The notes beneath the pieces were generated by a model. That model was not told the origin of the DNA. It saw only the letters and a program-made list of their open reading frames with translations, and made no database searches. A DNA stretch of 31,126 bases from the IMG/VR virus record IMGVR_UViG_2874968258_000011. One strand, written 5' to 3'. Source of the DNA: a virus. Its lineage: Duplodnaviria > Heunggongvirae > Uroviricota > Caudoviricetes. Within the stretch, counting starts at the first letter, position 1; each line of letters begins with the position of its first letter. The position numbers were made by a program, and so were the translations under genes. Positions 1,826-30,635 of the stretch are shown piece by piece.

Positions 1826-2265
1826 TGGAGCACCTCAAAAACACCATCATACACTAAATCAGTAAGTTGGCAGCATCACCCTTCTGTGGTTATATTTATT
1901 TTCACCCAGCCAGTCAGTCTGGATATGGGCCAGTAGCAGTAGCGGGTGTGATAAATGGGGCCGTTAATGCCGTAAAAAGTAAGGGATTTGGCTCTGTACC
2001 TCGGTTCTGTTGTCTCAGGGCGTGCATCAGTCCACCGGATGCTGAGCCCCCCTTCAAACCGTGTGTCGGGTATGATGATGTCGTAGGGGCCAGCAACGGA
2101 ATATTCACCTGGCAGCGCATTCCTTACCCAGGCCAGGAAATCACTCTTAGTGTCAAAACGGATAACATCTTCAGGCAGAAAAGCACACCCAAAGCCGAAT
2201 GCGCCGGGTATCGCCAGACGGCTGAGGTGTACTGGCAATAGCGGACACTACCATTTGTTCTTTTT

Positions 2266-3084
2266 TTAAGCAGCCATCTGATGATATTTTTCCCTGAAGG
2301 CTGCCGGGGAGATATTCCCCAGACGAGAGTGACGACGCTGACGATTGTAGAAAATCTCAATGTATTCCCGTATTACTGAGATGGCTTCATCCCGGTTATT
2401 AAAACGATAGTGGCTCAGGCTCTCATTTTTCAGCGTTCCCCAGAAGCTTTCCATCGGAGCGTTGTCGTAACAGTTACCTTTACGCGACATTGATGTTTTC
2501 AGACCAGACTGCTCCTGTATGACCCGGTAATCGTATGCGCAGTACTGTGAACCTCGATCAGAGTGGTGGATTAGCCCGGCAGGTGGGCGCTGGCTCCTGA
2601 GCGCCATAAACAGGGCTTTACCTGTCAGCTCTTTTGTCATGCGCTCTCCCATGGCGTAGCCGACAATTTCGCACGTATAAACATCTTTGATGCCAGCGAG
2701 GTACAACCATCCCTCCTGTGTGGCAACATACGTCAGGTCCGCCACCCAGACCTGATTTGGTGCTGTAGGAGCGAACGTCTGGTTCAGCAGATTTGGCGCA
2801 ACTGGCAGATTGTGGTTCGAGTTCGTAGTCGCTCTGAACTTGCGTTTCTGCTTACAGCGTAGCCTTAGCTCCTTACGAAGACGTGCCAGTCGGTCACGAC
2901 CAACGATGATGCCATTCTCTGCCAGCTCCGTCTGGAGCCGCCGGGTTCCATATGTTTCGCGAGTGCGGATATGTGCCACCTTAATCTCCAGTTTTAGCCG
3001 CTCATCACTTTGTTTTCTGTCTGAGGGTTCATGCTGTACCCAGTTGTAATAACCGCTCCTGGATACACCAAATACCTGACACAT
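2266..3084 (-). CDS. IS600 OrfB (DDE transposase catalytic part; OrfAB by -1 frameshift)
   Basis: 272-aa ORF; A-run slippery site at end of orfA. Confidence 0.9.
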   Translation of the reverse strand: MCQVFGVSRSGYYNWVQHEPSDRKQSDERLKLEIKVAHIRTRETYGTRRLQTELAENGIIVGRDRLARLRKELRLRCKQKRKFRATTNSNHNLPVAPNLLNQTFAPTAPNQVWVADLTYVATQEGWLYLAGIKDVYTCEIVGYAMGERMTKELTGKALFMALRSQRPPAGLIHHSDRGSQYCAYDYRVIQEQSGLKTSMSRKGNCYDNAPMESFWGTLKNESLSHYRFNNRDEAISVIREYIEIFYNRQRRHSRLGNISPAAFREKYHQMAA

Positions 3085-3119
3085 CGCTTCAATGGGAAAT
3101 TGTTGTCGCCATTGTTCGA

Positions 3120-3422
3120 TTAACGCGTATTTTTCAGCGACTCCTGTGCAAAATACGCTGTTGCTTTTTTTAATATATCTCGCTCAAGGCGAGCTTCATT
3201 TAACGCCTTACGCAGTTGCAGAATTTCAGATTCCAGTTCAGCCACCGTGCGGGAACCAGGAGTACCGAGCCCTTTTCTGGCGGCGGTAACCCATTGTCCT
3301 AAAGTGCCTTCAGGAAGAGATAATCGGGAAGCGCCTTCACTGATCGAAAGTTGATTTTCAAGAACCGTTCTGACAGCTTCGGCTTTGAACTCTTTAGAGT
3401 AACGTTGGGTTTTTCTGCTCAT
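3120..3422 (-). CDS. IS600 OrfA (HTH transposase subunit)
   Basis: 100-aa ORF MSRKTQRYSKEFKAEAV…; variant with L at residue 21. Confidence 0.9.
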   Translation of the reverse strand: MSRKTQRYSKEFKAEAVRTVLENQLSISEGASRLSLPEGTLGQWVTAARKGLGTPGSRTVAELESEILQLRKALNEARLERDILKKATAYFAQESLKNTR

Positions 3423-3486
3423 TATTAGCTCCTTCTGATGCCATTCTATTTCAGGAAGGAGTGTCCGTTAAACTCAGGCTACCTCA

Positions 3487-3844
3487 TTCTGGCGAGTCGT
3501 TTTTTGGAGTGTTCGCGGGCTTTTTCCTCCGTCATCTGAATAATCAGCATATCAGCAGGATCGCAAATCACGTTGTAAATCACCCAGCCGTCAATCAGGC
3601 CGATAGTCTTGCCGGTTCGTGCCGGGCCAACAAATATCACTGCGTCGTATTCACGCGAGGCCAGGCAGTTCATCGGCTCAATAACATACGGTGCCACCAG
3701 CGGATCCCACGGGACTGAGTTCCCTGCCCCCATGGGCACCCGCATATACTGAGCAACGGCATCAGCAACCCGCATTCGTCTCGGTGCGCGAAGGATATAA
3801 CCTGAATCGGTTCGTGCTGCCTTTGCGGTTTCCTGATTCAGCAT
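3487..3844 (-). pseudogene. Terminase large subunit (gpA-like), N-terminal ~119 codons only; truncated at IS600
   Basis: ORF starts at stop of Nu1-like gene; pattern resembles lambda gpA N-terminus (W-D/E-x-L … Y-x-x-V … AR-x-G-x-T/SK); reading frame runs into IS600 end. Confidence 0.55.
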
Positions 3845-4481: not shown

Positions 4482-4775
<294 letters not shown>

Positions 4776-4793
4776 CTACCATTTGTTCTTTTT

Positions 4794-5612
4794 TTAAGCA
4801 GCCATCTGATGATATTTTTCCCTGAAGGCTGCCGGGGAGATATTCCCCAGACGAGAGTGACGACGCTGACGATTGTAGAAAATCTCAATGTATTCCCGTA
4901 TTACTGAGATGGCTTCATCCCGGTTATTAAAACGATAGTGGCTCAGGCTCTCATTTTTCAGCGTTCCCCAGAAGCTTTCCATCGGAGCGTTGTCGTAACA
5001 GTTACCTTTACGCGACATTGATGTTTTCAGACCAGACTGCTCCTGTATGACCCGGTAATCGTATGCGCAGTACTGTGAACCTCGATCAGAGTGGTGGATT
5101 AGCCCGGCAGGTGGGCGCTGGCTCCTGAGCGCCATAAACAGGGCTTTACCTGTCAGCTCTTTTGTCATGCGCTCTCCCATGGCGTAGCCGACAATTTCGC
5201 ACGTATAAACATCTTTGATGCCAGCGAGGTACAACCATCCCTCCTGTGTGGCAACATACGTCAGGTCCGCCACCCAGACCTGATTTGGTGCTGTAGGAGC
5301 GAACGTCTGGTTCAGCAGATTTGGCGCAACTGGCAGATTGTGGTTCGAGTTCGTAGTCGCTCTGAACTTGCGTTTCTGCTTACAGCGTAGCCTTAGCTCC
5401 TTACGAAGACGTGCCAGTCGGTCACGACCAACGATGATGCCATTCTCTGCCAGCTCCGTCTGGAGCCGCCGGGTTCCATATGTTTCGCGAGTGCGGATAT
5501 GTGCCACCTTAATCTCCAGTTTTAGCCGCTCATCACTTTGTTTTCTGTCTGAGGGTTCATGCTGTACCCAGTTGTAATAACCGCTCCTGGATACACCAAA
5601 TACCTGACACAT
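4794..5612 (-). CDS. IS600 OrfB
   Basis: 272-aa ORF identical to copy 1. Confidence 0.9.
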   Translation of the reverse strand: MCQVFGVSRSGYYNWVQHEPSDRKQSDERLKLEIKVAHIRTRETYGTRRLQTELAENGIIVGRDRLARLRKELRLRCKQKRKFRATTNSNHNLPVAPNLLNQTFAPTAPNQVWVADLTYVATQEGWLYLAGIKDVYTCEIVGYAMGERMTKELTGKALFMALRSQRPPAGLIHHSDRGSQYCAYDYRVIQEQSGLKTSMSRKGNCYDNAPMESFWGTLKNESLSHYRFNNRDEAISVIREYIEIFYNRQRRHSRLGNISPAAFREKYHQMAA

Positions 5613-5647
5613 CGCTTCAATGGGAAATTGTTGTCGCCATTGTTCGA

Positions 5648-5950
5648 TTAACGCGTATTTTTCAGCGACTCCTGTGCAAAATACGCTGTTGCTTTTTTTA
5701 ATATATCTCGCTCAAGGCGAGCTTCATTTAACGCCTTACGCAGTTGCAGAATTTCAGATTCCAGTTCAGCCACCGTGCGGGAACCAGGAGTACCGAGCCC
5801 TTTTCTGGCGGCGGTAACCCATTGTCCTAAAGTGCCTTCAGGAAGAGATAATCGGGAAGCGCCTTCACTGATCGAAAGTTGATTTTCAAGAACCGTTCTG
5901 ACAGCTTCGGCTTTGAACTCTTTAGAGTAACGTTGGGTTTTTCTGCTCAT
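5648..5950 (-). CDS. IS600 OrfA
   Basis: Identical to copy 1 OrfA (L variant). Confidence 0.9.
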   Translation of the reverse strand: MSRKTQRYSKEFKAEAVRTVLENQLSISEGASRLSLPEGTLGQWVTAARKGLGTPGSRTVAELESEILQLRKALNEARLERDILKKATAYFAQESLKNTR

Positions 5951-6014
5951 TATTAGCTCCTTCTGATGCCATTCTATTTCAGGAAGGAGTGTCCGTTAAA
6001 CTCAGGCTACCTCA

Positions 6015-6549
6015 TGGCTTCCTCTCTGTTCATCGGCAGATAGCCTATTTCATCCAGGATCAACACCCGGGCATAACTCAGTTGCTGTAGCTGACGCTCC
6101 AGCCGGTTTTCCTGTTTCGCTTTCATCAGTGTCGCGATCAGTCTGTCCAGTGGCATAAACAGTACCCGATGTCCCGCATCCACCGCTTTCACGCCAAGAG
6201 CTATGGCCAGATGAGTTTTTCCGACACCAGGAGGGCCCAGCAGGATCACGTTTTCGCTGCGCTCCACGAACGCCAGACCAGCCAGTTCCCGGACAACCTT
6301 ACGGTCGATGCCCGGCTGGAAGGTAAAGTCGAACTGCTCCAGCGTTTTGACCCACGGCAGACGAGCCTGCTTCAGCCTGGACTCCATACCGCGCTGATGC
6401 CTGCCGTTCCATTCCTGCTGTAGCGCCATGCACAGGAACTCCCGGTAGTTCAGCTCTTTTTTAGCTGCCTGTTCCAGCAGGCTTTCAACGTGATAACTCA
6501 GATGCTCCATTTTCAGGCGACTCAGCAGGACTTCCAGTTCATGCATCAC
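6015..6549 (-). pseudogene. istB: istB N-terminal fragment (Walker A GPPGVGKT present)
   Basis: 180-aa ORF 6007..6549 whose last codons run into IS600. Confidence 0.8.
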
Positions 6550-9731: not shown

Positions 9732-9908
9732 AGCCTCACCTCCGCAAATAACGGATGGCGTAGTTTTACACTGAGAAATGAAAGGGATTTGAAAAGAAAA
9801 AAACGCAAAAGCGGGCGAAACGATATATACAGTAAGGAAAGCACTGAGGTAGCCTGAGTTTAACGGACACTCCTTCCTAAAATAGAATGGCATCAGAAGG
9901 AGCTAATA

Positions 9909-10211
9909 ATGAGCAGAAAAACCCAACGTTACTCTAAAGAGTTCAAAGCCGAAGCTGTCAGAACGGTTCCTGAAAATCAACTTTCGATCAGTGAAGGCGC
10001 TTCCCGATTATCTCTTCCTGAAGGCACTTTAGGACAATGGGTTACCGCCGCCAGAAAAGGGCTCGGTACTCCTGGTTCCCGCACGGTGGCTGAACTGGAA
10101 TCTGAAATTCTGCAACTGCGTAAGGCGTTAAATGAAGCTCGCCTTGAGCGAGATATATTAAAAAAAGCAACAGCGTATTTTGCACAGGAGTCGCTGAAAA
10201 ATACGCGTTAA
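9909..10211 (+). CDS. IS600 OrfA (P variant at residue 21)
   Basis: 100-aa ORF. Confidence 0.9.
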   Translation: MSRKTQRYSKEFKAEAVRTVPENQLSISEGASRLSLPEGTLGQWVTAARKGLGTPGSRTVAELESEILQLRKALNEARLERDILKKATAYFAQESLKNTR

Positions 10212-10302
10212 TCGAACAATGGCGACAACAATTTCCCATTGAAGCGATGTGTCAGGTATTTGGTGTATCCAGGAGCGGTTATTACAACTGGGTATGAAGT
10301 GG

Positions 10303-11471
<1,169 letters not shown>

Positions 11472-12542
11472 TGGAGCACCTGTGTTGTTCTGAGGTGAGC
11501 ATATCACCTCTGTTCAGGTGGCCAAATTCAGTGTGCCACTTCAGTACAGCATGAACCCTCAGACAGAAAACAAAGTGATGAGCGGCTAAAACTGGAGATT
11601 AAGGTGGCACATATCCGCACTCGCGAAACATATGGAACCCGGCGGCTCCAGACGGAGCTGGCAGAGAATGGCATCATCGTTGGTCGTGACCGACTGGCAC
11701 GTCTTCGTAAGGAGCTAAGGCTACGCTGTAAGCAGAAACGCAAGTTCAGAGCGACTACGAACTCGAACCACAATCTGCCAGTTGCGCCAAATCTGCTGAA
11801 CCAGACGTTCGCTCCTACAGCACCAAATCAGGTCTGGGTGGCGGACCTGACGTATGTTGCCACACAGGAGGGATGGTTGTACCTCGCTGGCATCAAAGAT
11901 GTTTATACGTGCGAAATTGTCGGCTACGCCATGGGAGAGCGCATGACAAAAGAGCTGACAGGTAAAGCCCTGTTTATGGCGCTCAGGAGCCAGCGCCCAC
12001 CTGCCGGGCTAATCCACCACTCTGATCGAGGTTCACAGTACTGCGCATACGATTACCGGGTCATACAGGAGCAGTCTGGTCTGAAAACATCAATGTCGCG
12101 TAAAGGTAACTGTTACGACAACGCTCCGATGGAAAGCTTCTGGGGAACGCTGAAAAATGAGAGCCTGAGCCACTATCGTTTTAATAACCGGGATGAAGCC
12201 ATCTCAGTAATACGGGAATACATTGAGATTTTCTACAATCGTCAGCGTCGTCACTCTCGTCTGGGGAATATCTCCCCGGCAGCCTTCAGGGAAAAATATC
12301 ATCAGATGGCTGCTTAAAAAAAGAACAAATGGTAGTGTCCGCTATTGCCAGTACACCTCACACTCTATCCAACAAACCACCCACAGTTAATCGGAATAAA
12401 AGCAGAGTGCTTATGAATGATCGCACGCCCGAAGGTTAGTATTTCTGCACAGCAATTTTGCAAAAAAAGGCGATCATTCATAACTTAAACGTCTTTCAGT
12501 CACTCCGGGATTTCCCATCATCGCAGACTGAAAGACTCTGAC

Positions 12543-12617
<75 letters not shown>

Positions 12618-12620
12618 ATA

Positions 12621-12696
<76 letters not shown>

Positions 12697-12698
12697 GC

Positions 12699-12775
12699 TG
12701 GCCCACCACCGAGGACTCGAACCTCGCACCGTCAACTTAGAAGGTTGATGCTCTATCCGGATGAGCTAGTGGTGG
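12699..12775 (-). tRNA. tRNA-Arg (anticodon UCU); unusual C1:G72
   Basis: Acceptor CCACCAC/GTGGTGG, anticodon loop CTTCTAA, T-arm CGAGGTTCGAGTCCTCG, CCA. Confidence 0.75.
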
Positions 12776-12776
12776 T

Positions 12777-12853
12777 TGGTGGCCCTTGCTGGACTTGAAC
12801 CAGCGACCTGGCGATTATGAGTCGCTCGCTCTGACCAACTGAGCTAAAGGGCC
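12777..12853 (-). tRNA. tRNA with CAU anticodon, ileX-like (Ile2/lysidine type; elongator Met not excluded)
   Basis: GGCCCTTTAGCTCAG…GACTCATAATCGCC…GGTTCAAGTCCAGCAAGGGCCACCA. Confidence 0.75.
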
Positions 12854-14767: not shown

Positions 14768-14873
14768 GATGCCTCCAGGTTTATAAGTACAAACGGTTAT
14801 ATCAACATAGAGACAAAAGGTGATGCTGCCAACTTACTGATTTAGTGTATGATGGTGTTTTTGAGGTGCTCCA

Positions 14874-15149
14874 GTGGCTTCTGTTTCTATCAGCTGTCCC
14901 TCCTGTTCAGCTACTGACGGGGTGGTGCGTAACGGCAAAAGCACTGCCGGACATCAGCGCTATCTCTGCTCTCACTGCCGTAAAACATGGCAACTGCAGT
15001 TCACTTACACCGCTTCCCAACCCGGTACGCACCAGAAAATCATTGATATGGCCATGAATGGCGTTGGATGCCGGGCAACTGCACGCATTATGGGCGTTGG
15101 CCTCAACACGATTTTACGTCACTTAAAAAACTCAGGCCGCAGTCGGTAA
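14874..15149 (+). CDS. insA: IS1 InsA
   Basis: 91-aa ORF. Confidence 0.9.
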
Positions 15150-15571
15150 CCTCGCGCATACAGCCGGGCAGTGACGTCATCGTCTGCGCGGAAATGGACG
15201 AACAGTGGGGCTATGTCGGGGCTAAATCGCGCCAGCGCTGGCTGTTTTACGCGTATGACAGTCTCCGGAAGACGGTTGTTGCGCACGTATTCGGTGAACG
15301 CACTATGGCGACGCTGGGGCGTCTTATGAGCCTGCTGTCACCCTTTGACGTGGTGATATGGATGACGGATGGCTGGCCGCTGTATGAATCCCGCCTGAAG
15401 GGAAAGCTGCACGTAATCAGCAAGCGATATACGCAGCGAATTGAGCGGCATAACCTGAATCTGAGGCAGCACCTGGCACGGCTGGGACGGAAGTCGCTGT
15501 CGTTCTCAAAATCGGTGGAGCTGCATGACAAAGTCATCGGGCATTATCTGAACATAAAACACTATCAATAA
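15068..15571 (+). CDS. insB: IS1 InsB
   Basis: 167-aa ORF. Confidence 0.9.
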
Positions 15572-15678
15572 GTTGGAGTCATTACCAAAAAAACCGCCGA
15601 AACGGGTTAAGTGCGGGTGCGTTGAGGATGCCTGACACATCAAAGGTGGCGGGAGATTACTCTCCCGCCTGGTCACTC

Positions 15679-15834
15679 TTACTCTCTAGATTCGTAGTCT
15701 ACGAAAACAGCGACCTCCGTCTGGCCGATTCGGATTCGTACCTCGCAGAGGTCTTTCCTCGTTACCAGTGCCGTCACAATGACGGTTAAACAGATGACGA
15801 TCAGGGCGATTAACATCGCCTTTTGCTGCTTCAT
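15679..15834 (-). CDS. hok: Hok/Gef-family type I toxin (51 aa)
   Basis: MKQQKAMLIALIVICLTVIVTALVTRKDLCEVRIRIGQTEVAVFVDYESRE closely resembles Gef/HokC; AGGAG RBS; ORF-track entry 15679..15891 is an upstream extension. Confidence 0.85.
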   Translation of the reverse strand: MKQQKAMLIALIVICLTVIVTALVTRKDLCEVRIRIGQTEVAVFVDYESRE

Positions 15835-16172
15835 AGCCTGCTTCTCCTTGCCTTTCGGCACGTAAGAGGCTAACCTACATTTGTGAGACATAGATTGGGC
15901 CTCAGATTAATGTTAAGCGTCTTGCAGGACGCGTAATGTTAACTGGGGCTTTTCTCTGTCTGCCTTACAGTGACATACCCGAGGCAGACAGCCTCAAGCA
16001 CCCGCAGCAATCTTACCGACACCGATAAGAAAACGCTATTTTTTATTGCCAGCACCATCTATCCAGGCTAGTTTATCTGCGTCAGAACGGCGCAATGCGC
16101 TCGCCTGAGATACGTTTACTTGCCATGGTAACAACAGGTAACGGCAATTGCTGTTTCTGTTTTGTTTCCTTC

Positions 16173-16203
16173 AAAAACCCCGGACCATCAATCCGGGGTT
16201 TTT
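16173..16203. terminator. Bidirectional intrinsic terminator (stem CCCCGGA/TCCGGGG, A5 on one side, T5 on the other)
   Basis: 7-bp GC-rich perfect stem flanked by A-run and T-run. Confidence 0.6.
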
Positions 16204-16208
16204 GTTTG

Positions 16209-16292
16209 TTAACCCCAACGGCAAATCGAATACACCACCAGCGCCACCGCCATCGCAATTCCTACCGTGGTGAATGCCTCAGGCCAGGTCAT
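16209..16292 (-). CDS. Candidate 27-aa hydrophobic peptide MTWPEAFTTVGIAMAVALVVYSICRWG
   Basis: ATG overlaps stop of DUF551-like gene (ATGA); AGGAGGTG located 6 nt upstream inside preceding gene; terminator immediately downstream; below ORF-track size cutoff. Confidence 0.4.
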   Translation of the reverse strand: MTWPEAFTTVGIAMAVALVVYSICRWG

Positions 16293-16654
16293 TGATTCAC
16301 CTCCTGCGGTGGTTCCGGTAGCGGCATCCAGTGAGTTGAGCTCTCTACTTCAACGCCGTCTTTGTCCACAAAAGCCATCTTATTCCCGCCACGAGTGGGG
16401 CAAAAAACCTTATCCCAGGAACCGGGGAATACATTCCCGAGATCATCGAGAAGAATCACATCGCAATATTCAGCAGGAACTGCATCACTACAGCTTATCC
16501 AGCCAGCCGGAGCTACCGGAGAGTTGCCAGCCTTACGCATGGCCATTTCCACGATTTCAACCATATCTCCTGGTGGAATTTTACAAAGTTGCCCAATACA
16601 TTTCTGCTGCCTGGCATATTCGAGAATGTGCTCCAGTTTGGTTCGATTAATCAT
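16289..16654 (-). CDS. DUF551-like prophage protein
   Basis: 121-aa ORF with C-terminal W…THWMPLPEPP-type motif. Confidence 0.55.
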   Translation of the reverse strand: MINRTKLEHILEYARQQKCIGQLCKIPPGDMVEIVEMAMRKAGNSPVAPAGWISCSDAVPAEYCDVILLDDLGNVFPGSWDKVFCPTRGGNKMAFVDKDGVEVESSTHWMPLPEPPQEVNQ

Positions 16655-17319
16655 TATTTATCTCCCTTAAGCATGGCAGCGCGGCAGGCGTTCCAGCCAT
16701 CAACATAATCAAACGTATTACTATCGTTTGGCCCGATTTCATCCGGCACTATCGGCTCTGGTTGGATAGTGACGTTGGCAAAGGCAGCACGCAAACCGGT
16801 TTTAATTTCTTCGATTTCATCAGAGCCAAGCGATGAATCTGACAGTGCGTGATGGAATGCGTAAGCCATGTCGTCGTTTACTGCAACCGGCACTGCCGGC
16901 GCTGCGTAAAGCGGTGTTATATCTGCCCGAAAATCACATGCTTTATGCAGTCGTACCCAACACTCAACTTCCGCTTTGTCAAAATATATAGCAGTGAACG
17001 TATTAGATTCCTGGTCAACTTGAGTAAACGTCACCTTCCACGCTACAGCTACGGCTTTCCATCCATCAGGTTGTCGCATTCGCGGGGCAGCATAAAGCTC
17101 ATGCATTCCATCAGGCAGCGAGTGACCCACATACTCACCGAACCCGTCAATACACATGCCCCCATCTTCAACAATGCATTCCGCTACAGGCTCTGCTTCC
17201 AGTGATGCCAGAGCGATAAGCGCCAGTTCACGAATTTCACCGCCGTCTATATCGTCAATATCATCGCGGCCAGAAATGTTAGCCAGCCATTGCAGTCGCT
17301 CTTTGGTAATAGTGGTCAT
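16654..17319 (-). CDS. Hypothetical prophage protein with duplicated LYAAP motif
   Basis: 221-aa acidic ORF; start overlaps HNH stop; stop overlaps DUF551 start. Confidence 0.55.
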   Translation of the reverse strand: MTTITKERLQWLANISGRDDIDDIDGGEIRELALIALASLEAEPVAECIVEDGGMCIDGFGEYVGHSLPDGMHELYAAPRMRQPDGWKAVAVAWKVTFTQVDQESNTFTAIYFDKAEVECWVRLHKACDFRADITPLYAAPAVPVAVNDDMAYAFHHALSDSSLGSDEIEEIKTGLRAAFANVTIQPEPIVPDEIGPNDSNTFDYVDGWNACRAAMLKGDK

Positions 17320-17681
17320 GCCGTAGCCCCTTCTTGATATTTTTCAAACCAGAACACAACCGGGTCAGATTTCATTTCAACCAATCCCATACGAACCAGC
17401 GCTTTGCCTTTCCCGGACGCAAGGAATTCACGACGACCATCACTGATAATTCGTCGATAATCTTCCAGGCTACTGCAATGCTTGTGCAGATTGCATGGGT
17501 GGCATGCTGGTACCATGTTGGATATATCGTCACGTTCCTGGTGAAGCATATTTCCATCAAAACGAATGACCGGTTTTACATGGTCTGCATGCCACTTTTC
17601 GCCAAGTTCGCAGCCGCAATAAGCGCAGCGACCACCGAACTTCATGCGCAGTTCTGCACGTTGTTTTTTCGTCAGTGCCAT
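17316..17681 (-). CDS. HNH endonuclease
   Basis: CAYCGCEL…WHADHVKP…CHPCNLHK zinc-finger/HNH motif; start at internal ATG with AAGGA RBS. Confidence 0.75.
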   Translation of the reverse strand: MALTKKQRAELRMKFGGRCAYCGCELGEKWHADHVKPVIRFDGNMLHQERDDISNMVPACHPCNLHKHCSSLEDYRRIISDGRREFLASGKGKALVRMGLVEMKSDPVVFWFEKYQEGATA

Positions 17682-17682
17682 A

Positions 17683-17901
17683 TCAGCTTTCCTTATACGG
17701 ATTAATTTTATTGTGCAGTGTGTTGAATGACGCCCATACCACGTCGTTATACAATTCAATAACTGGCTCAATTATTTTTCCGATTATCCAGACAAAAATT
17801 AGCGGGGATATCGGTGTCATCAACACGATAAACAGAATGAGAAACAGGAATTCTGTTGTTCTACTCTTTCGCGGATATTTTTTTCTAAATAATGTAACCA
17901 T
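17683..17901 (-). CDS. Hypothetical small membrane protein
   Basis: 72-aa ORF with hydrophobic segment FLFLILFIVLMTPISPLIFVWIIG; ends 2 nt before HNH start. Confidence 0.35.
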   Translation of the reverse strand: MVTLFRKKYPRKSRTTEFLFLILFIVLMTPISPLIFVWIIGKIIEPVIELYNDVVWASFNTLHNKINPYKES

Positions 17902-18334: not shown

Positions 18335-18389
18335 GGTGATGCTGCCAACTTACTGATTTAGTGTATGATGGTGTTTTTGAGGTGCTCCA

Positions 18390-18665
18390 GTGGCTTCTGT
18401 TTCTATCAGCTGTCCCTCCTGTTCAGCTACTGACGGGGTGGTGCGTAACGGCAAAAGCACTGCCGGACATCAGCGCTATCTCTGCTCTCACTGCCGTAAA
18501 ACATGGCAACTGCAGTTCACTTACACCGCTTCTCAACCCGGTACGCACCAGAAAATCATTGATATGGCCATGAATGGCGTTGGATGCCGGGCAACTGCAC
18601 GCATTATGGGCGTTGGCCTCAACACGATTTTACGTCACTTAAAAAACTCAGGCCGCAGTCGGTAA
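18390..18665 (+). CDS. insA: IS1 InsA
   Basis: 91-aa ORF. Confidence 0.9.
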
Positions 18666-19087
18666 CCTCGCGCATACAGCCGGGCAGTGACGTCATCGTC
18701 TGCGCGGAAATGGACGAACAGTGGGGCTATGTCGGGGCTAAATCGCGCCAGCGCTGGCTGTTTTACGCGTATGACAGTCTCCGGAAGACGGTTGTTGCGC
18801 ACGTATTCGGTGAACGCACTATGGCGACGCTGGGGCGTCTTATGAGCCTGCTGTCACCCTTTGACGTGGTGATATGGATGACGGATGGCTGGCCGCTGTA
18901 TGAATCCCGCCTGAAGGGAAAGCTGCACGTAATCAGCAAGCGATATACGCAGCGAATTGAGCGGCATAACCTGAATCTGAGGCAGCACCTGGCACGGCTG
19001 GGACGGAAGTCGCTGTCGTTCTCAAAATCGGTGGAGCTGCATGACAAAGTCATCGGGCATTATCTGAACATAAAACACTATCAATAA
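18584..19087 (+). CDS. insB: IS1 InsB
   Basis: 167-aa ORF. Confidence 0.9.
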
Positions 19088-19164
19088 GTTGGAGTCATTA
19101 TGAGGTAGCCTGAGTTTAACGGACACTCCTTCCTGAAATAGAATGGCATCAGAAGGAGCTAATA

Positions 19165-19467
19165 ATGAGCAGAAAAACCCAACGTTACTCTAAAGAGTTC
19201 AAAGCCGAAGCTGTCAGAACGGTTCCTGAAAATCAACTTTCGATCAGTGAAGGCGCTTCCCGATTATCTCTTCCTGAAGGCACTTTAGGACAATGGGTTA
19301 CCGCCGCCAGAAAAGGGCTCGGTACTCCTGGTTCCCGCACGGTGGCTGAACTGGAATCTGAAATTCTGCAACTGCGTAAGGCGTTAAATGAAGCTCGCCT
19401 TGAGCGAGATATATTAAAAAAAGCAACAGCGTATTTTGCACAGGAGTCGCTGAAAAATACGCGTTAA
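19165..19467 (+). CDS. IS600 OrfA (P variant)
   Basis: 100-aa ORF. Confidence 0.9.
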   Translation: MSRKTQRYSKEFKAEAVRTVPENQLSISEGASRLSLPEGTLGQWVTAARKGLGTPGSRTVAELESEILQLRKALNEARLERDILKKATAYFAQESLKNTR

Positions 19468-19502
19468 TCGAACAATGGCGACAACAATTTCCCATTGAAG
19501 CG

Positions 19503-20321
19503 ATGTGTCAGGTATTTGGTGTATCCAGGAGCGGTTATTACAACTGGGTACAGCATGAACCCTCAGACAGAAAACAAAGTGATGAGCGGCTAAAACTGGA
19601 GATTAAGGTGGCACATATCCGCACTCGCGAAACATATGGAACCCGGCGGCTCCAGACGGAGCTGGCAGAGAATGGCATCATCGTTGGTCGTGACCGACTG
19701 GCACGTCTTCGTAAGGAGCTAAGGCTACGCTGTAAGCAGAAACGCAAGTTCAGAGCGACTACGAACTCGAACCACAATCTGCCAGTTGCGCCAAATCTGC
19801 TGAACCAGACGTTCGCTCCTACAGCACCAAATCAGGTCTGGGTGGCGGACCTGACGTATGTTGCCACACAGGAGGGATGGTTGTACCTCGCTGGCATCAA
19901 AGATGTTTATACGTGCGAAATTGTCGGCTACGCCATGGGAGAGCGCATGACAAAAGAGCTGACAGGTAAAGCCCTGTTTATGGCGCTCAGGAGCCAGCGC
20001 CCACCTGCCGGGCTAATCCACCACTCTGATCGAGGTTCACAGTACTGCGCATACGATTACCGGGTCATACAGGAGCAGTCTGGTCTGAAAACATCAATGT
20101 CGCGTAAAGGTAACTGTTACGACAACGCTCCGATGGAAAGCTTCTGGGGAACGCTGAAAAATGAGAGCCTGAGCCACTATCGTTTTAATAACCGGGATGA
20201 AGCCATCTCAGTAATACGGGAATACATTGAGATTTTCTACAATCGTCAGCGTCGTCACTCTCGTCTGGGGAATATCTCCCCGGCAGCCTTCAGGGAAAAA
20301 TATCATCAGATGGCTGCTTAA
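19503..20321 (+). CDS. IS600 OrfB
   Basis: 272-aa ORF. Confidence 0.9.
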   Translation: MCQVFGVSRSGYYNWVQHEPSDRKQSDERLKLEIKVAHIRTRETYGTRRLQTELAENGIIVGRDRLARLRKELRLRCKQKRKFRATTNSNHNLPVAPNLLNQTFAPTAPNQVWVADLTYVATQEGWLYLAGIKDVYTCEIVGYAMGERMTKELTGKALFMALRSQRPPAGLIHHSDRGSQYCAYDYRVIQEQSGLKTSMSRKGNCYDNAPMESFWGTLKNESLSHYRFNNRDEAISVIREYIEIFYNRQRRHSRLGNISPAAFREKYHQMAA

Positions 20322-20364
20322 AAAAAGAACAAATGGTAGTGTCCGCTATTGCCAGTACACCTCA

Positions 20365-20734
20365 TAGCTTCGCTCTTCCGGCACTCGCGACAGATTATAT
20401 TCAGGCGCCTGTCGTAGCGGCGTATTTCTCCGTCTGGTAATGACCAGATAAGGTCAGGATCAACCACAACCGGTTTCTTCACCTTTACCCTCGATAGCTT
20501 TTTGCGGGCGTTTTGCCAGTCTTTATGAGCCTGTTCAGAGGGAAATACCCCGTAGCCAGAATTATATACATCACCACTTGCGACCAGTTCCATGCATAAG
20601 CGACCGACAGACGCACGACTGATACCTGTTTCATCTGACAACTGCCGAATCGTGACCCGACCGTCCTGATGCACGAGTTCCACAATTCGCGTCTTCAGTT
20701 CTTCCCGCTGTTCGGGAGTAAAAGGTTTCGCCAT
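20365..20734 (-). CDS. Hypothetical prophage protein; 3' end runs into IS600, probably C-terminally truncated
   Basis: ORF 20318..20734 with strong AGGAGG RBS; last ~14 codons are IS600-derived. Confidence 0.45.
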
Positions 20735-21495: not shown

Positions 21496-22033
21496 GGTCT
21501 GTTACCCCCTGAAGCCTGGCGGGATCGCACTGTCCGGCAACGAGACGGTGTTAACCTGTCGGAGCAACGTCTCAGGCCGAACACCTTTCGGCGCGAACAG
21601 ACCCTGGTATTCATTGGCGATGCTGTGTCGAATCACCTGCTCAGGTGTAAAACCCTGCTGACGGAATTTTTCCAGTTCCCGTATCGCCCCGTTAGCGCCC
21701 TGCTCCGTTCGAATCGGTTTTCGCAATGCCTGCCTGAACTGGACCCACTCATGCCAGAGTGTTTCTGGCAACCAGTCGGGCAGATCAACTGACAACGGGT
21801 CAAATTTTTTCTGGCGAACAGCCCCACCGATAACCAGAATTCCCTGCTCGGTGTGCCTTGCGATATCACTGCGCCGCAAGACACATATCCCGGTTTCAAC
21901 AGCACCGATTTTGAGCAGTGATTTCTGTCGCGGAGAATTTCGGTCAAGCTCGCTCCCACACCGGACACCGTTCCTGTCAGTCACGACGATTGAGGTGTAC
22001 TGGCAATAGCGGACACTACCATTTGTTCTTTTT

Positions 22034-22852
22034 TTAAGCAGCCATCTGATGATATTTTTCCCTGAAGGCTGCCGGGGAGATATTCCCCAGACGAGAGTGA
22101 CGACGCTGACGATTGTAGAAAATCTCAATGTATTCCCGTATTACTGAGATGGCTTCATCCCGGTTATTAAAACGATAGTGGCTCAGGCTCTCATTTTTCA
22201 GCGTTCCCCAGAAGCTTTCCATCGGAGCGTTGTCGTAACAGTTACCTTTACGCGACATTGATGTTTTCAGACCAGACTGCTCCTGTATGACCCGGTAATC
22301 GTATGCGCAGTACTGTGAACCTCGATCAGAGTGGTGGATTAGCCCGGCAGGTGGGCGCTGGCTCCTGAGCGCCATAAACAGGGCTTTACCTGTCAGCTCT
22401 TTTGTCATGCGCTCTCCCATGGCGTAGCCGACAATTTCGCACGTATAAACATCTTTGATGCCAGCGAGGTACAACCATCCCTCCTGTGTGGCAACATACG
22501 TCAGGTCCGCCACCCAGACCTGATTTGGTGCTGTAGGAGCGAACGTCTGGTTCAGCAGATTTGGCGCAACTGGCAGATTGTGGTTCGAGTTCGTAGTCGC
22601 TCTGAACTTGCGTTTCTGCTTACAGCGTAGCCTTAGCTCCTTACGAAGACGTGCCAGTCGGTCACGACCAACGATGATGCCATTCTCTGCCAGCTCCGTC
22701 TGGAGCCGCCGGGTTCCATATGTTTCGCGAGTGCGGATATGTGCCACCTTAATCTCCAGTTTTAGCCGCTCATCACTTTGTTTTCTGTCTGAGGGTTCAT
22801 GCTGTACCCAGTTGTAATAACCGCTCCTGGATACACCAAATACCTGACACAT
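22034..22852 (-). CDS. IS600 OrfB
   Basis: 272-aa ORF. Confidence 0.9.
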   Translation of the reverse strand: MCQVFGVSRSGYYNWVQHEPSDRKQSDERLKLEIKVAHIRTRETYGTRRLQTELAENGIIVGRDRLARLRKELRLRCKQKRKFRATTNSNHNLPVAPNLLNQTFAPTAPNQVWVADLTYVATQEGWLYLAGIKDVYTCEIVGYAMGERMTKELTGKALFMALRSQRPPAGLIHHSDRGSQYCAYDYRVIQEQSGLKTSMSRKGNCYDNAPMESFWGTLKNESLSHYRFNNRDEAISVIREYIEIFYNRQRRHSRLGNISPAAFREKYHQMAA

Positions 22853-22887
22853 CGCTTCAATGGGAAATTGTTGTCGCCATTGTTCGA

Positions 22888-23190
22888 TTAACGCGTATTT
22901 TTCAGCGACTCCTGTGCAAAATACGCTGTTGCTTTTTTTAATATATCTCGCTCAAGGCGAGCTTCATTTAACGCCTTACGCAGTTGCAGAATTTCAGATT
23001 CCAGTTCAGCCACCGTGCGGGAACCAGGAGTACCGAGCCCTTTTCTGGCGGCGGTAACCCATTGTCCTAAAGTGCCTTCAGGAAGAGATAATCGGGAAGC
23101 GCCTTCACTGATCGAAAGTTGATTTTCAGGAACCGTTCTGACAGCTTCGGCTTTGAACTCTTTAGAGTAACGTTGGGTTTTTCTGCTCAT
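22888..23190 (-). CDS. IS600 OrfA (P variant)
   Basis: 100-aa ORF. Confidence 0.9.
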   Translation of the reverse strand: MSRKTQRYSKEFKAEAVRTVPENQLSISEGASRLSLPEGTLGQWVTAARKGLGTPGSRTVAELESEILQLRKALNEARLERDILKKATAYFAQESLKNTR

Positions 23191-23980
23191 TATTAGCTCC
23201 TTCTGATGCCATTCTATTTCAGGAAGGAGTGTCCGTTAAACTCAGGCTACCTCAGATATCAATCCGCCCTCCGCAACCGTCACCACGCTCTGGCACCGGA
23301 TACTCACGACAGACATCCAGGCCAGCAGCCTGCAACGCAACCACCGCAGAATTACAAAATTCCGCTGCAGTACCGCCAGATAATCTCCCCTCAAGCACTC
23401 CAGCCACAAAATCCCGAAACTCCCTTCCGGAAGGGAAGGGTTTGGGATGGGTTAGATCTGTTTTTAGATCTTTATCTGTATCTTTATTAGTTGCCTTTGT
23501 GTTGGCATCATGTTCGAACATCACTCCAACATCTGTTTGAACACCTGTTAAATTTCTCTCTTGTTTTGTTTGAACATCTGCTTCCTTTCTGCTTCTTCTG
23601 GCCTGAACAGATGCTTTTCCTGCGGCTGATTTTTTGGTTAATTTTTCTCTGACAGATGCCAGATCTTCCTCAATCCGAAGATGCATCCATTCGTCGCCGT
23701 TATCACAAAAAAACTCCCGCAAGGATGGTTCAACATCAACCCATCGCTCGTTAGTCAGACGGGCAATTTTTGCCAACCTGTTTTTGGGTATTGGCTTTCC
23801 TGTTTGCCAGTAATTGAACATCAGCAACAAATACGCGCCGTGCTCCTCTGCTGACAAATGCATGGTGTCAGCCAGGTAATCAGCTATGTACAGTTGCATG
23901 TATGGTAATGCGGCCATAATTGCCCCGTATGATGCTGCCCGGTTGCTTAGAATAAGCACAAACAGCATGGAAACTTTTGC

Positions 23981-27647: not shown

Positions 27648-28493
27648 ATGTTGAATGTAGCTATTGAAAACCAGAACGGGTGGAATTATAGTGCACCTGC
27701 ACCTCATAAAACGGGTGCCGGGATTGCTACCCCGAAGTCATTCACGGCGCATAACCGCGCTCAGGCGGTTTTTTTATGCGTAATGCACAGCCACATTCAA
27801 ATTATGGTGGGGCGTGCGGGGCAGTCGCAAGACTGGCCGGGTTCCGTGATGACCGGTTGTAGCAACCCTGTACGTCTCACCACCCATGAGATTGCTACCT
27901 CCGGTGGTGAGTTAATCAAATTCATCGCGGAGGCTGCCATCATGGCTACTACCCTTTCTCACCCTTGTGTAACCGTAGAAAACGGTCGCGCTGTCACTAC
28001 GTCTGTTGCGGTTGCAGAGTTCTTCCACAAACGACACGACAATGTGTTACGTGCCATCGCAAATATTGAATGCTCAGATAAATTTACTGCCCTCAATTTT
28101 GAAGCGAGCGAATACACCGACTCAATCGGGCGCAAACTCCCAATGTACCAAATCACCAAAAACGGCTTCGTTTTCCTGGTTATGGGCTTCACTGGCAAAA
28201 AAGCCGCTGCATTCAAAGAAGCCTACATTGCTGAGTTCGACCGCATGGAGGCCGAACTGCGCCAGAATAACACCCCACCTGCTGACAAGATGATTCCGGG
28301 TGATGGTCGCACTCTGGTTGTTCACTTCGACAAATTCGGCAATGTCGAATTCACCGAAACCGTTCCTGATGGCGCACTGGTCTGTACCCTGGAGACTTTC
28401 CGGTTTTATCTGGAAAAACAGGGATGGACTCTTGTTAACCGGGGCGCAATTAAAAATATGACTGTGGAACAATTACTCAAAATTCATTGTTGA
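27648..28493 (+). CDS. Rha-family phage regulatory protein / antirepressor-like; alternative internal start at 27942
   Basis: Rha-like segment VTVENGRAVTTSVAVAEFFHKRHDNVLRAI begins near residue 105; both 27648 and 27942 ATGs have RBS. Confidence 0.5.
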   Translation: MLNVAIENQNGWNYSAPAPHKTGAGIATPKSFTAHNRAQAVFLCVMHSHIQIMVGRAGQSQDWPGSVMTGCSNPVRLTTHEIATSGGELIKFIAEAAIMATTLSHPCVTVENGRAVTTSVAVAEFFHKRHDNVLRAIANIECSDKFTALNFEASEYTDSIGRKLPMYQITKNGFVFLVMGFTGKKAAAFKEAYIAEFDRMEAELRQNNTPPADKMIPGDGRTLVVHFDKFGNVEFTETVPDGALVCTLETFRFYLEKQGWTLVNRGAIKNMTVEQLLKIHC

Positions 28494-29240: not shown

Positions 29241-29435
29241 AAAAAAGAAAGCCTGCACACTGTGCAGGCCTGAGTGAAGAACCTGGGACATTTATTCATC
29301 ACTCGCAGTAATTTTAATCTGAGTTGAGGTTAAAAAACAATGAGCACCGATAAACAAGTTTACCCACTGTATGAGGTAGCCTGAGTTTAACGGACACTCC
29401 TTCCTGAAATAGAATGGCATCAGAAGGAGCTAATA

Positions 29436-29738
29436 ATGAGCAGAAAAACCCAACGTTACTCTAAAGAGTTCAAAGCCGAAGCTGTCAGAACGGTTCCTGA
29501 AAATCAACTTTCGATCAGTGAAGGCGCTTCCCGATTATCTCTTCCTGAAGGCACTTTAGGACAATGGGTTACCGCCGCCAGAAAAGGGCTCGGTACTCCT
29601 GGTTCCCGCACGGTGGCTGAACTGGAATCTGAAATTCTGCAACTGCGTAAGGCGTTAAATGAAGCTCGCCTTGAGCGAGATATATTAAAAAAAGCAACAG
29701 CGTATTTTGCACAGGAGTCGCTGAAAAATACGCGTTAA
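29436..29738 (+). CDS. IS600 OrfA (P variant)
   Basis: 100-aa ORF. Confidence 0.9.
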   Translation: MSRKTQRYSKEFKAEAVRTVPENQLSISEGASRLSLPEGTLGQWVTAARKGLGTPGSRTVAELESEILQLRKALNEARLERDILKKATAYFAQESLKNTR

Positions 29739-29773
29739 TCGAACAATGGCGACAACAATTTCCCATTGAAGCG

Positions 29774-30592
29774 ATGTGTCAGGTATTTGGTGTATCCAGG
29801 AGCGGTTATTACAACTGGGTACAGCATGAACCCTCAGACAGAAAACAAAGTGATGAGCGGCTAAAACTGGAGATTAAGGTGGCACATATCCGCACTCGCG
29901 AAACATATGGAACCCGGCGGCTCCAGACGGAGCTGGCAGAGAATGGCATCATCGTTGGTCGTGACCGACTGGCACGTCTTCGTAAGGAGCTAAGGCTACG
30001 CTGTAAGCAGAAACGCAAGTTCAGAGCGACTACGAACTCGAACCACAATCTGCCAGTTGCGCCAAATCTGCTGAACCAGACGTTCACTCCTACAGCACCA
30101 AATCAGGTCTGGGTGGCGGACCTGACGTATGTTGCCACACAGGAGGGATGGTTGTACCTCGCTGGCATCAAAGATGTTTATACGTGCGAAATTGTCGGCT
30201 ACGCCATGGGAGAGCGCATGACAAAAGAGCTGACAGGTAAAGCCCTGTTTATGGCGCTCAGGAGCCAGCGCCCACCTGCCGGGCTAATCCACCACTCTGA
30301 TCGAGGTTCACAGTACTGCGCATACGATTACCGGGTCATACAGGAGCAGTCTGGTCTGAAAACATCAATGTCGCGTAAAGGTAACTGTTACGACAACGCT
30401 CCGATGGAAAGCTTCTGGGGAACGCTGAAAAATGAGAGCCTGAGCCACTATCGTTTTAATAACCGGGATGAAGCCATCTCAGTAATACGGGAATACATTG
30501 AGATTTTCTACAATCGTCAGCGTCGTCACTCTCGTCTGGGGAATATCTCCCCGGCAGCCTTCAGGGAAAAATATCATCAGATGGCTGCTTAA
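29774..30592 (+). CDS. IS600 OrfB
   Basis: 272-aa ORF. Confidence 0.9.
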   Translation: MCQVFGVSRSGYYNWVQHEPSDRKQSDERLKLEIKVAHIRTRETYGTRRLQTELAENGIIVGRDRLARLRKELRLRCKQKRKFRATTNSNHNLPVAPNLLNQTFTPTAPNQVWVADLTYVATQEGWLYLAGIKDVYTCEIVGYAMGERMTKELTGKALFMALRSQRPPAGLIHHSDRGSQYCAYDYRVIQEQSGLKTSMSRKGNCYDNAPMESFWGTLKNESLSHYRFNNRDEAISVIREYIEIFYNRQRRHSRLGNISPAAFREKYHQMAA

Positions 30593-30635
30593 AAAAAGAA
30601 CAAATGGTAGTGTCCGCTATTGCCAGTACACCTCA

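Follow-up and report, generated by a model that had tools for sequence, protein, structure and literature searches.

A common, overlooked phage gene of 27 codons, carried as a translationally coupled cassette and predicted to encode a membrane microprotein

The window analyzed here is a stretch of 31,126 nucleotides from a virus of the Caudoviricetes (IMG/VR record IMGVR_UViG_2874968258_000011), and its subject is an open reading frame (ORF) of 27 codons at the end of an HNH/DUF551 operon on the minus strand. Overall, this ORF is best explained, and quite probably so, as a conserved phage gene for a membrane microprotein, which moves between genomes as a coupled mosaic cassette and whose product would act in the inner membrane. 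The original prediction, made from the letters of the window, had proposed a hydrophobic 27-codon ORF coupled to the operon end, and this was borne out, as the frame runs from 16292 to 16209 and its ATG overlaps the stop codon of the DUF551 gene. By itself, an ORF of this length is not significant, because 103 ORFs of at least 20 amino acids (aa) were listed within 6 kb. It is conservation, and not length, that raises this one above chance.

The gene and its start signals are as follows.

16209..16292, minus strand: microprotein gene of 84 nt, with ATG, 27 codons and TAA, encoding the peptide MTWPEAFTTVGIAMAVALVVYSICRWG
16298..16305, minus strand: Shine–Dalgarno (SD) sequence AGGAGGTG, within the last DUF551 codons (..P-Q-E-V-N-Q, then stop)
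16289..16292, minus strand: ATGA stop-start overlap, the coupling junction of the DUF551 TGA and the microprotein ATG

The presence of AGGAGGTG upstream of the ATG agrees with the original prediction, while the spacing is 5 nt rather than the 6 nt that had been given; measured from the AGGAGG core, it is 7 nt. Given a strong SD and a stop-start overlap, the microprotein ORF would be translated whenever the operon is transcribed.

Purifying selection and the coding strand

Alleles of the ORF were collected with a degenerate DNA pattern encoding M-x-W-P-E-A-F-x-x-V-G, by which 120 IMG/VR stretches were recovered. The window and the related loci L001-L128 gave 129 matches, and one-per-species genomes another 10; together, these make up 67 distinct nucleotide alleles. 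Chance matches aside, the frames in this set have 19-40 codons, with a single exception of 65 codons that carries a C-terminal extension. Exactly 27 aa are found in 48 of the 112 distinct peptides, and most others have 23-40 aa.

The 27-codon alleles were joined in a minimum spanning tree, and substitutions were counted on 42 short branches of it. In codons 12-27, which the search pattern leaves unconstrained, there were 40 synonymous and 18 non-synonymous changes (omega ~0.16, p=6e-12), where only 26% would be synonymous by chance. Over the whole ORF, the counts were 68 and 29, respectively (omega ~0.15, p=3e-21). The amino-acid replacements are conservative, being exchanges among I, V, L, M and A or between S and T, and three of the four alternative frames that were tested have an omega of ~1-1.8. 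In addition, start, motif, hydrophobic run and length are all still present in members that have diverged to 40-50% identity. To judge from these patterns of substitution, the 27-codon ORF is a real protein-coding gene under purifying selection. Conservation of the frame across related prophages, which had been suggested as a check, thus clearly favors a gene (129 matches, 67 alleles, omega ~0.15).

Omega alone is insufficient to assign the coding strand, which was determined from the start codon and SD, the cassette boundaries and the properties of the peptide. The sense strand is preferred because the start codon and ribosome-binding site (RBS) are conserved in the sense frame only, because an antisense ORF would cross junctions that differ between mosaics and because the sense product shows coherent protein properties.

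Distribution of the gene

With a coverage of at least 80%, the 84-nt ORF is present in 1,557 of 5,426 complete E. coli genomes (~29%). Its copies occupy 2,512 places, with a maximum of six per genome, and 161 of them are on plasmids. By tblastn, the peptide was found in 94 phage records, for instance those of 933W, VT2-Sakai, VT1-Sakai, Stx2 II, BP-4795 and ArgO145, and these records also include the P1-like SJ46 and the virulent Vequintavirinae phage Av-05. The same search gave 226 plasmid records, 217 of which are non-mobilizable, mostly phage-plasmids of 90-100 kb. Two short contigs assigned to other species, L132 (Xanthomonas pisi, 431 bp) and L135 (Acinetobacter idrijaensis, 369 bp), carry alleles identical to those of E. 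coli; these probably reflect contamination of the assemblies by E. coli phage DNA.

A mosaic cassette at a recurrent junction

When seven contexts of the gene were aligned, the similarity ran from the ATG to the stop codon, and the flanks on both sides were unrelated. Similarly, many blastn matches begin precisely at the ATG and finish at the stop. An overlap with the upstream stop codon was observed in 134 of 137 loci, as ATGA in 100, by 1 nt in 28 and by 14 nt in 6, and an SD-like motif lies upstream in 129 of the 137. The upstream gene is of the DUF551 type in 90 of these loci. In the others, it belongs to one of 20 other clusters, for at least 21 in all, which include a 933W L0139-like gene, a DHH phosphoesterase, DUF669, an MBL-fold protein and, in Av-05, an Ea22-like gene. 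The conservation of the ORF is independent of DUF551, and selection keeps the microprotein gene translatable wherever the cassette lands. The cassette is made up of the ORF alone, and stands behind Ea22/DUF551-type genes in lambdoid phages and among genes of recombination modules in distant phages.

In the window, the genes upstream of the microprotein are the following.

16289..16654, minus strand: DUF551 gene, 121 aa (Pfam PF04448, E=3.4e-19), the upstream partner in this mosaic
16654..17319, minus strand: ORF of 221 aa from the ORF list, with an Ea22-like motif at its C-terminus
17316..17771, minus strand: HNH endonuclease ORF (Pfam HNH, E=3e-6)

These three ORFs are chained by overlaps of 1 nt and 4 nt, and their calls match the annotation of L001, a locus that is 99.8% identical. 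The DUF551 protein of the window is identical to a Shigella MULTISPECIES protein. In the literature, variants of Ea22 are described in which DUF551 forms a portable domain at the C-terminus (PMC10834534). In HK022, ST104 and Stx2c phages, the 3′ end of DUF551 is kept together with its embedded AGGAGG, and unrelated genes are coupled downstream.

~701-745 of L143, L144 and L145: genes coupled to a DUF551-type end (..PEPPQEV..), namely an HK022 94-aa protein, the ST104 94-aa membrane protein ORF7 and an Stx2c 64-aa MerR/xis-like protein

Since the DUF551 end is reused in this way by other genes, the microprotein gene is one among several cassettes that can take this recurring position. By the same token, the embedded SD is not special to this ORF. 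No slippery heptamer for a programmed -1 frameshift was found at the ATGA junction with DUF551, so that a frameshift fusion of the two products was ruled out; the database entries labelled 'DUF551, partial' that contain the peptide were rejected as mis-framed fragments and not real fusions.

Genuine in-frame fusions do occur with another partner, in which the N-terminal coiled coil of Ead/Ea22 is joined to the peptide (..PPLESNK-MSWPDAFAIAGVAMSIALIVFAICRWG; MSWPDAF..CRWG). They were found in at least six contigs, and the three that are given here come from three different samples.

3001-3432 of L154, also in L155 and L156: Ead/Ea22-microprotein fusion, protein P0167, followed by a DUF4222 gene, xis and int

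A GGAG is retained before the internal ATG of this fusion, and P0162 is a second fused cluster. The fusion could be a Rosetta-stone sign of joint action with Ea22-type proteins; it could equally be a plain deletion of the variable C-terminal domain. P22 EaD was also considered as a carrier of the motif and was rejected, as the tblastn extension into the motif was spurious.

Distant members of the family are found where small early genes form long arrays on one strand. Next to them are RecT, a YqaJ-like exonuclease, an SMC-like ATPase, an MBL-fold protein, RNA ligase and methylases, or else xis and int.

The family and its status in databases

A profile search with a k-mer prefilter, headed by the 40-aa in-frame translation from the window, gave 201 proteins. 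Their names are 'hypothetical', 'bacteriophage protein' or 'putative prophage protein', except for those wrongly labelled as partial DUF551, and none of the 201 carries a Pfam domain. A filter-free search of 1.84 billion representatives with a hidden Markov model (HMM) gave 243 clusters at 50% identity with E<=1e-3, and 15 with E<=1e-10. Nearly all clusters have 25-90 aa, and the match begins at residue 1. The core of the family is M-x-W-P-x-A-[FLIV]-x-x-V-G, followed by a hydrophobic helix of small residues and then by a basic end, and members usually have 23-35 aa. Variants of the motif include W-P-D-A-F, W-P-Q-A-F, W-P-S-A-F, W-P-A-A-F, W-P-T-A-F, W-P-E-A-L/I/V, W-P-E-T-F and W-P-D-A-I. A probable member in Sphingobium has 27 aa and an SD and overlaps its neighbors; together with another in Izhakiella, it indicates a spread of the family beyond Escherichia, Shigella and Salmonella.

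Searches of Pfam, PHROGs v4, NCBIfam and PADLOC with single peptides, 32 members and 10 longer members gave nothing above threshold, a profile search of the PDB gave no match and a search of literature full text for the motif WPEAF gave no relevant match. Among the K-12 MG1655 prophages, no member was found in CPS-53, Rac, Qin or DLP12, with e14 outside the check; consequently, small-protein studies in K-12 could not have met the family. The ORF had been called unannotated, which holds for RefSeq/PGAP and for eleven annotated records but not for GenBank, where the exact peptide is entered as 'hypothetical' or 'bacteriophage protein' (AOM45384.1 and ASL59396.1) and a close variant is also found (BAI35516.1). 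These entries have the same or nearly the same 27 aa and are predictions only, with no family name or curation. The family had thus been seen before as scattered, uncurated predictions that were left out by RefSeq/PGAP.

Predicted properties and proposed action of the peptide

The window peptide has an N-terminal W-P-E-A-F, a glycine at position 11 (G11), small residues at 13, 15 and 17, a hydrophobic core at 8-24 and a C-terminal R-W-G, with W3 and W26 lying 23 residues apart. Among the 112 distinct peptides, G11 is invariant, A13 is present in 90, A15 in 104 and A17 in 99. Residues 8-22 have a mean Kyte-Doolittle hydropathy of 1.95 over these ~112 peptides, which were partly selected by the motif. 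In the same set, residues 1-9 hold 114 D+E and 3 K+R, whereas the tails hold 212 K+R and 59 D+E. The peptide is therefore predicted to fit the class of single-pass membrane microproteins, with a hydrophobic span between interfacial or charged flanks, in agreement with the small hydrophobic membrane peptide that had been anticipated.

A mechanism may be proposed from these properties. The coupled early or accessory operon would be transcribed on infection or induction, and the microprotein would then be made and enter the inner membrane as a single helix, probably oriented so that the W-P-E-A-F end meets the periplasmic face and the basic end is cytoplasmic. There, the helix may pack against a membrane protein through its G11/A13/A15/A17 faces. 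The upstream genes are soluble and varied, and none co-encodes a candidate membrane partner; because no such partner travels with the gene, the packing partner would most likely be host-encoded. The target would be a host membrane function in early infection or induction, with superinfection exclusion, division and transport as candidates. It is possible, although doubtful, that the W-P-x-A-F family as a whole represents pan-proteobacterial early effectors of phages, in which a transmembrane helix docks on one conserved host inner-membrane machine and thereby blocks superinfection or biases the choice between lysis and lysogeny, possibly together with Ea22/DUF551. Candidates for such docking are a divisome component, a channel for DNA entry or of the phosphotransferase system (PTS) and FtsH.

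The downstream hairpin and hok

Downstream of the microprotein gene, the window holds two further elements.

16172..16204, both strands: G+C-rich hairpin AAAAACCCCGGA-TTGATGG-TCCGGGGTTTTT with A5/T5 flanks, with CAAAC between the TAA and the hairpin
15679..16003, minus strand: hok/sok locus (mok/hok coding region and leader), with hok at 15834..15679, 'Hok/Gef family protein' by PGAP in L001

The perfect G+C-rich hairpin with A5/T5 flanks 5 nt past the stop was confirmed, as its fold has -23.0 kcal/mol (z=-3.9) on the minus strand and -20.7 kcal/mol (z=-4.3) on the plus strand. The plus strand has a stem of 13 pairs and then TTTGTT, which was flagged by a terminator scan, and the minus strand has a 7-bp CCCCGGA/TCCGGGG stem and then TTTTTG. 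With U-runs on both strands, the hairpin is predicted to be an intrinsic terminator that can be used in both directions, as had been suggested. The leader model of sok/hok (Rfam RF01794) scores 118 bits at 15829..16003, and hok starts 375 nt after the microprotein stop, in accordance with the distance that had been given for an intact hok.

By contrast, the significance that had been attached to these neighbors did not survive comparison with 134 related loci. A terminator-like hairpin directly follows the ORF in 27 of them, ~12 of which are the window's own sequence; the scan behind this count was strict, and at least one class of hairpin with a longer loop escaped it. In ~26-34 of the 134, hok lies 130-155 nt downstream. 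Elsewhere, an 80-aa DUF4222-type gene begins 4 nt past the stop (22 loci) or a different gene of 77-80 aa begins 2 nt past it (15 loci), and the copy in Av-05 lies within a gene array. From these context statistics, a functional link of the ORF to hok or to the terminator was rejected. The terminator and hok belong to this mosaic and not to the family, and the terminator simply ends the operon before hok/sok.

Between the hok/sok leader and the terminator, the ~170 nt at 16004-16171 have no annotated feature and are kept together with the terminator in related loci. For instance, L002 retains this segment and the terminator, with a convergent gene on the opposite strand. Rfam gave only sub-threshold matches over 16004-16171, and these were driven by the hairpin.

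Weighing the evidence

Several observations weigh against a conserved gene for a membrane microprotein. Some copies are decayed: codon 3 is changed from TGG to TAG in Shigella phage POCJ13 (L150, 1501-1581), where the antisense ORF PI30_gp73 is annotated instead of the microprotein, the start ATG is changed to ATA in plasmid pLH10-b-1-B (L153, 278-352), and one nonsense allele and one frameshift allele occur among the copies. Decay of some copies is as expected for prophage accessory genes. The wobble-aligned antisense frame, which is open in 58 of 62 alleles, has an omega of 0.20, although a low value in this frame is the expected shadow of the coding frame. The sets that describe the motif were partly selected by the motif itself. 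With regard to topology, the 27-aa form by itself shows a weak charge bias, and the in-frame Ead/Ea22 fusion would imply the opposite orientation. Finally, the motif is absent from the accessible portions of the supplements of a ribosome profiling (Ribo-seq) study of enterohemorrhagic E. coli (EHEC) Sakai, which was aimed at intergenic ORFs, and from those of an Enterobacteriaceae intergenic small-ORF study, a human-microbiome small-gene study and the GMSC catalogue, which are likewise targeted at intergenic sequences.

It is exceedingly improbable that the ORF is no gene at all but a chance frame, whose conservation would come from an antisense ORF, an RNA element or hitch-hiking with DUF551. 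Such an origin would account for the open wobble-aligned antisense frame with its low apparent omega and for the lack of a call in RefSeq. Nevertheless, the antisense frame has neither a start codon nor an SD inside the cassette and would span junctions that vary between mosaics, Rfam has no match on the ORF, and conservation is independent of DUF551. Moreover, members with only 40-50% identity still retain start, motif, hydrophobic run and length, whereas the pattern's two evident chance matches (Streptomyces and Micromonospora), which act as a built-in control, look different, with frames of 77 aa and 143 aa and no hydrophobic run. If the ORF is a gene, its peptide could still be incidental, so that what matters would be translation up to the operon end, which would hold ribosomes on the mRNA, prevent Rho-dependent polarity or tune the terminator and read-through into hok. 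The stop is indeed close by, 5 nt from the A-tract and 10 nt from the G+C stem, and a terminating ribosome would cover part of the 5′ arm. Such a role as a cis-acting translated spacer is highly improbable, given that selection acts on the amino-acid sequence, that the hairpin follows immediately in only 27 of 134 loci, that another gene starts a few nt past the stop in ~37 loci and the Av-05 copy is inside an array, and that the cassette boundaries are those of the ORF, with the terminator excluded.

Two further explanations accept the peptide as functional. A self-assembling toxic peptide, oligomers of which would depolarize or permeabilize the inner membrane like a type I toxin or a mini-holin, with the lysogen spared only by repression of the operon, is unlikely. 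The peptide is short and hydrophobic, with two small-residue faces (G11/A15 and A13/A17) that could pack oligomers, it bears a weak resemblance to a glycine zipper (DUF883_C, E=0.04, below threshold) and its gene lies within operons that lysogens do not express; overexpression of small phage membrane peptides is toxic in many cases. However, no antitoxin RNA, antisense promoter or structured leader was found. A crude consensus scan, which a weak promoter could escape, gave no sigma-70-like promoter on the opposite strand at 16100-16350, no Rfam family was found on either strand of the ORF apart from sub-threshold matches driven by the terminator hairpin, and neither a promoter of its own nor an RBS-sequestering leader was detected for the ORF. 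Instead, a strong exposed SD and coupling amount to unregulated translation. There is also no similarity to Hok/Gef or any toxin family, with no Hok_Gef (PF01848) match among 32 family members at E up to 1. The gene is outside the lysis cassette and occurs as well in the early-gene array of the virulent phage Av-05, and the invariant N-terminal motif argues for specific recognition and not for generic membrane damage. The type I toxin that had first been proposed is thus not upheld, while a regulatory microprotein, the other option that had been named, may still apply. A holin was rejected separately, as the neighbors are Ea22/DUF551, HNH, hok, xis/int and RecT and never lysis genes, and as 27 aa compare with the usual 60 aa or more.

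It is improbable, too, that the peptide is the membrane anchor or partner of an upstream protein of the Ea22/DUF551 type, of which the fusions would be a single-chain version. A DUF551-type gene upstream in 90 of 137 loci and tight coupling that favors equimolar synthesis speak for it, as do the in-frame Ead/Ea22 fusions in at least six contigs and the fused cluster P0162. Against this, at least 20 other, unrelated clusters are found upstream (for example, DHH phosphoesterase, DUF669 and MBL-fold proteins), the DUF551 3′ end precedes unrelated genes in HK022, ST104 and Stx2c phages, the fusion could be a mere deletion of the variable C-terminal domain and the ATGA junction has no slippery site for a -1 frameshift. 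A conserved microprotein gene with its own, most likely host-encoded, target is preferred.

Comparison with known systems

Type I toxins such as Hok/Gef, TisB, Ldr, Ibs and ShoB resemble the microprotein in being very small hydrophobic peptides with a single helix on a mobile element, and a hok/sok locus adjoins it in the window. Unlike them, the microprotein is operon-coupled and lacks an antisense RNA, its own promoter and a leader that hides the RBS. There is no sequence similarity between the two, and most related loci lack hok.

KdpF, CydX, AcrZ, MgtS, MgrB and Caulobacter SidA are single-pass regulatory microproteins of ~25-50 aa that bind larger membrane proteins, and KdpF and CydX are operon-encoded and were overlooked by annotation. 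The phage peptide shares with this type its size, its single predicted transmembrane helix and a short conserved end motif, but no partner is co-encoded with the phage gene. Microproteins of the KdpF, CydX and AcrZ type would be the best functional analogy. There is no sequence relationship, the only trace being a match to the KdpF model below threshold (E=0.024, 14.7 bits against a cut-off of 26.9).

The ORF7 protein of ST104 occupies the same niche, a variable cassette coupled after genes of the Ea22/DUF551 type, and is a membrane protein carried by a temperate phage; it has 94 aa and an unrelated sequence. Superinfection-exclusion proteins such as HK97 gp15 and T4 Imm are larger phage membrane proteins. 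They are targeted to the membrane, as the microprotein is predicted to be, but differ from it in size and are unrelated in sequence.

Setting of the window

The window also contains numerous insertion sequences (IS).

1113-1883, 14816-15586 and 18335-19100: three copies of IS1
2223-3487, 4733-6015, 19100-20382, 21991-23254 and 29371-30635: at least five full copies of an IS of ~1265 nt (1.26 kb) with a 272-aa ORF
9839-10294 and 11544-12361: a split copy of the ~1265-nt IS

The IS1 copy at 14816 separates hok from a DUF1367 gene. Another, at 18335-19100, is located a short distance upstream of the HNH/DUF551 operon and may separate these genes from their promoter, which makes expression of the operon in this genome uncertain. 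Given the many IS copies and a DUF551 protein identical to that of Shigella, the window probably represents a lambdoid prophage in decay, from Shigella or a closely related E. coli.

Elsewhere in the window, Rfam gave two matches above the gathering score on the plus strand, isrK at 27699-27775 (64.8 bits) and C4 antisense RNA at 27800-27887 (79 bits). These correspond to the immunity RNA element of the P1/P7 type, just before a 281-aa ORF at 27648-28493. A tRNA cluster at 12543-12853 on the minus strand (Gly-tcc, Thr-tgt, Arg-tct and Met-cat) is typical of the tRNA islands in the late regions of Stx and lambdoid prophages.

Significance

RefSeq, Pfam and PHROGs have no entry for a gene that ~29% of complete E. 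coli genomes carry, and this gap in annotation includes the Stx phages 933W, VT1-Sakai and VT2-Sakai as well as P1-like phage-plasmids. The microprotein gene is located in the exo-xis or 'ea' accessory regions. In lambda and in Stx phages, Ea22 is reported to promote lysogeny at the expense of the lytic cycle (PMC10834534). The microprotein could contribute to phenotypes that are now ascribed to its larger neighbors, since its gene would be lost or silenced along with a DUF551/Ea22-type gene that is deleted or carries a polar mutation.

The microprotein is not a new kind of system, and the knowledge of hok/sok is unchanged by it. As the family is compact, sharply defined and easily synthesized, it offers a tractable entry to the membrane microproteins of phages. 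What is new, on the evidence of conservation, is that a common and overlooked family of phage microproteins is recognized as a real gene.

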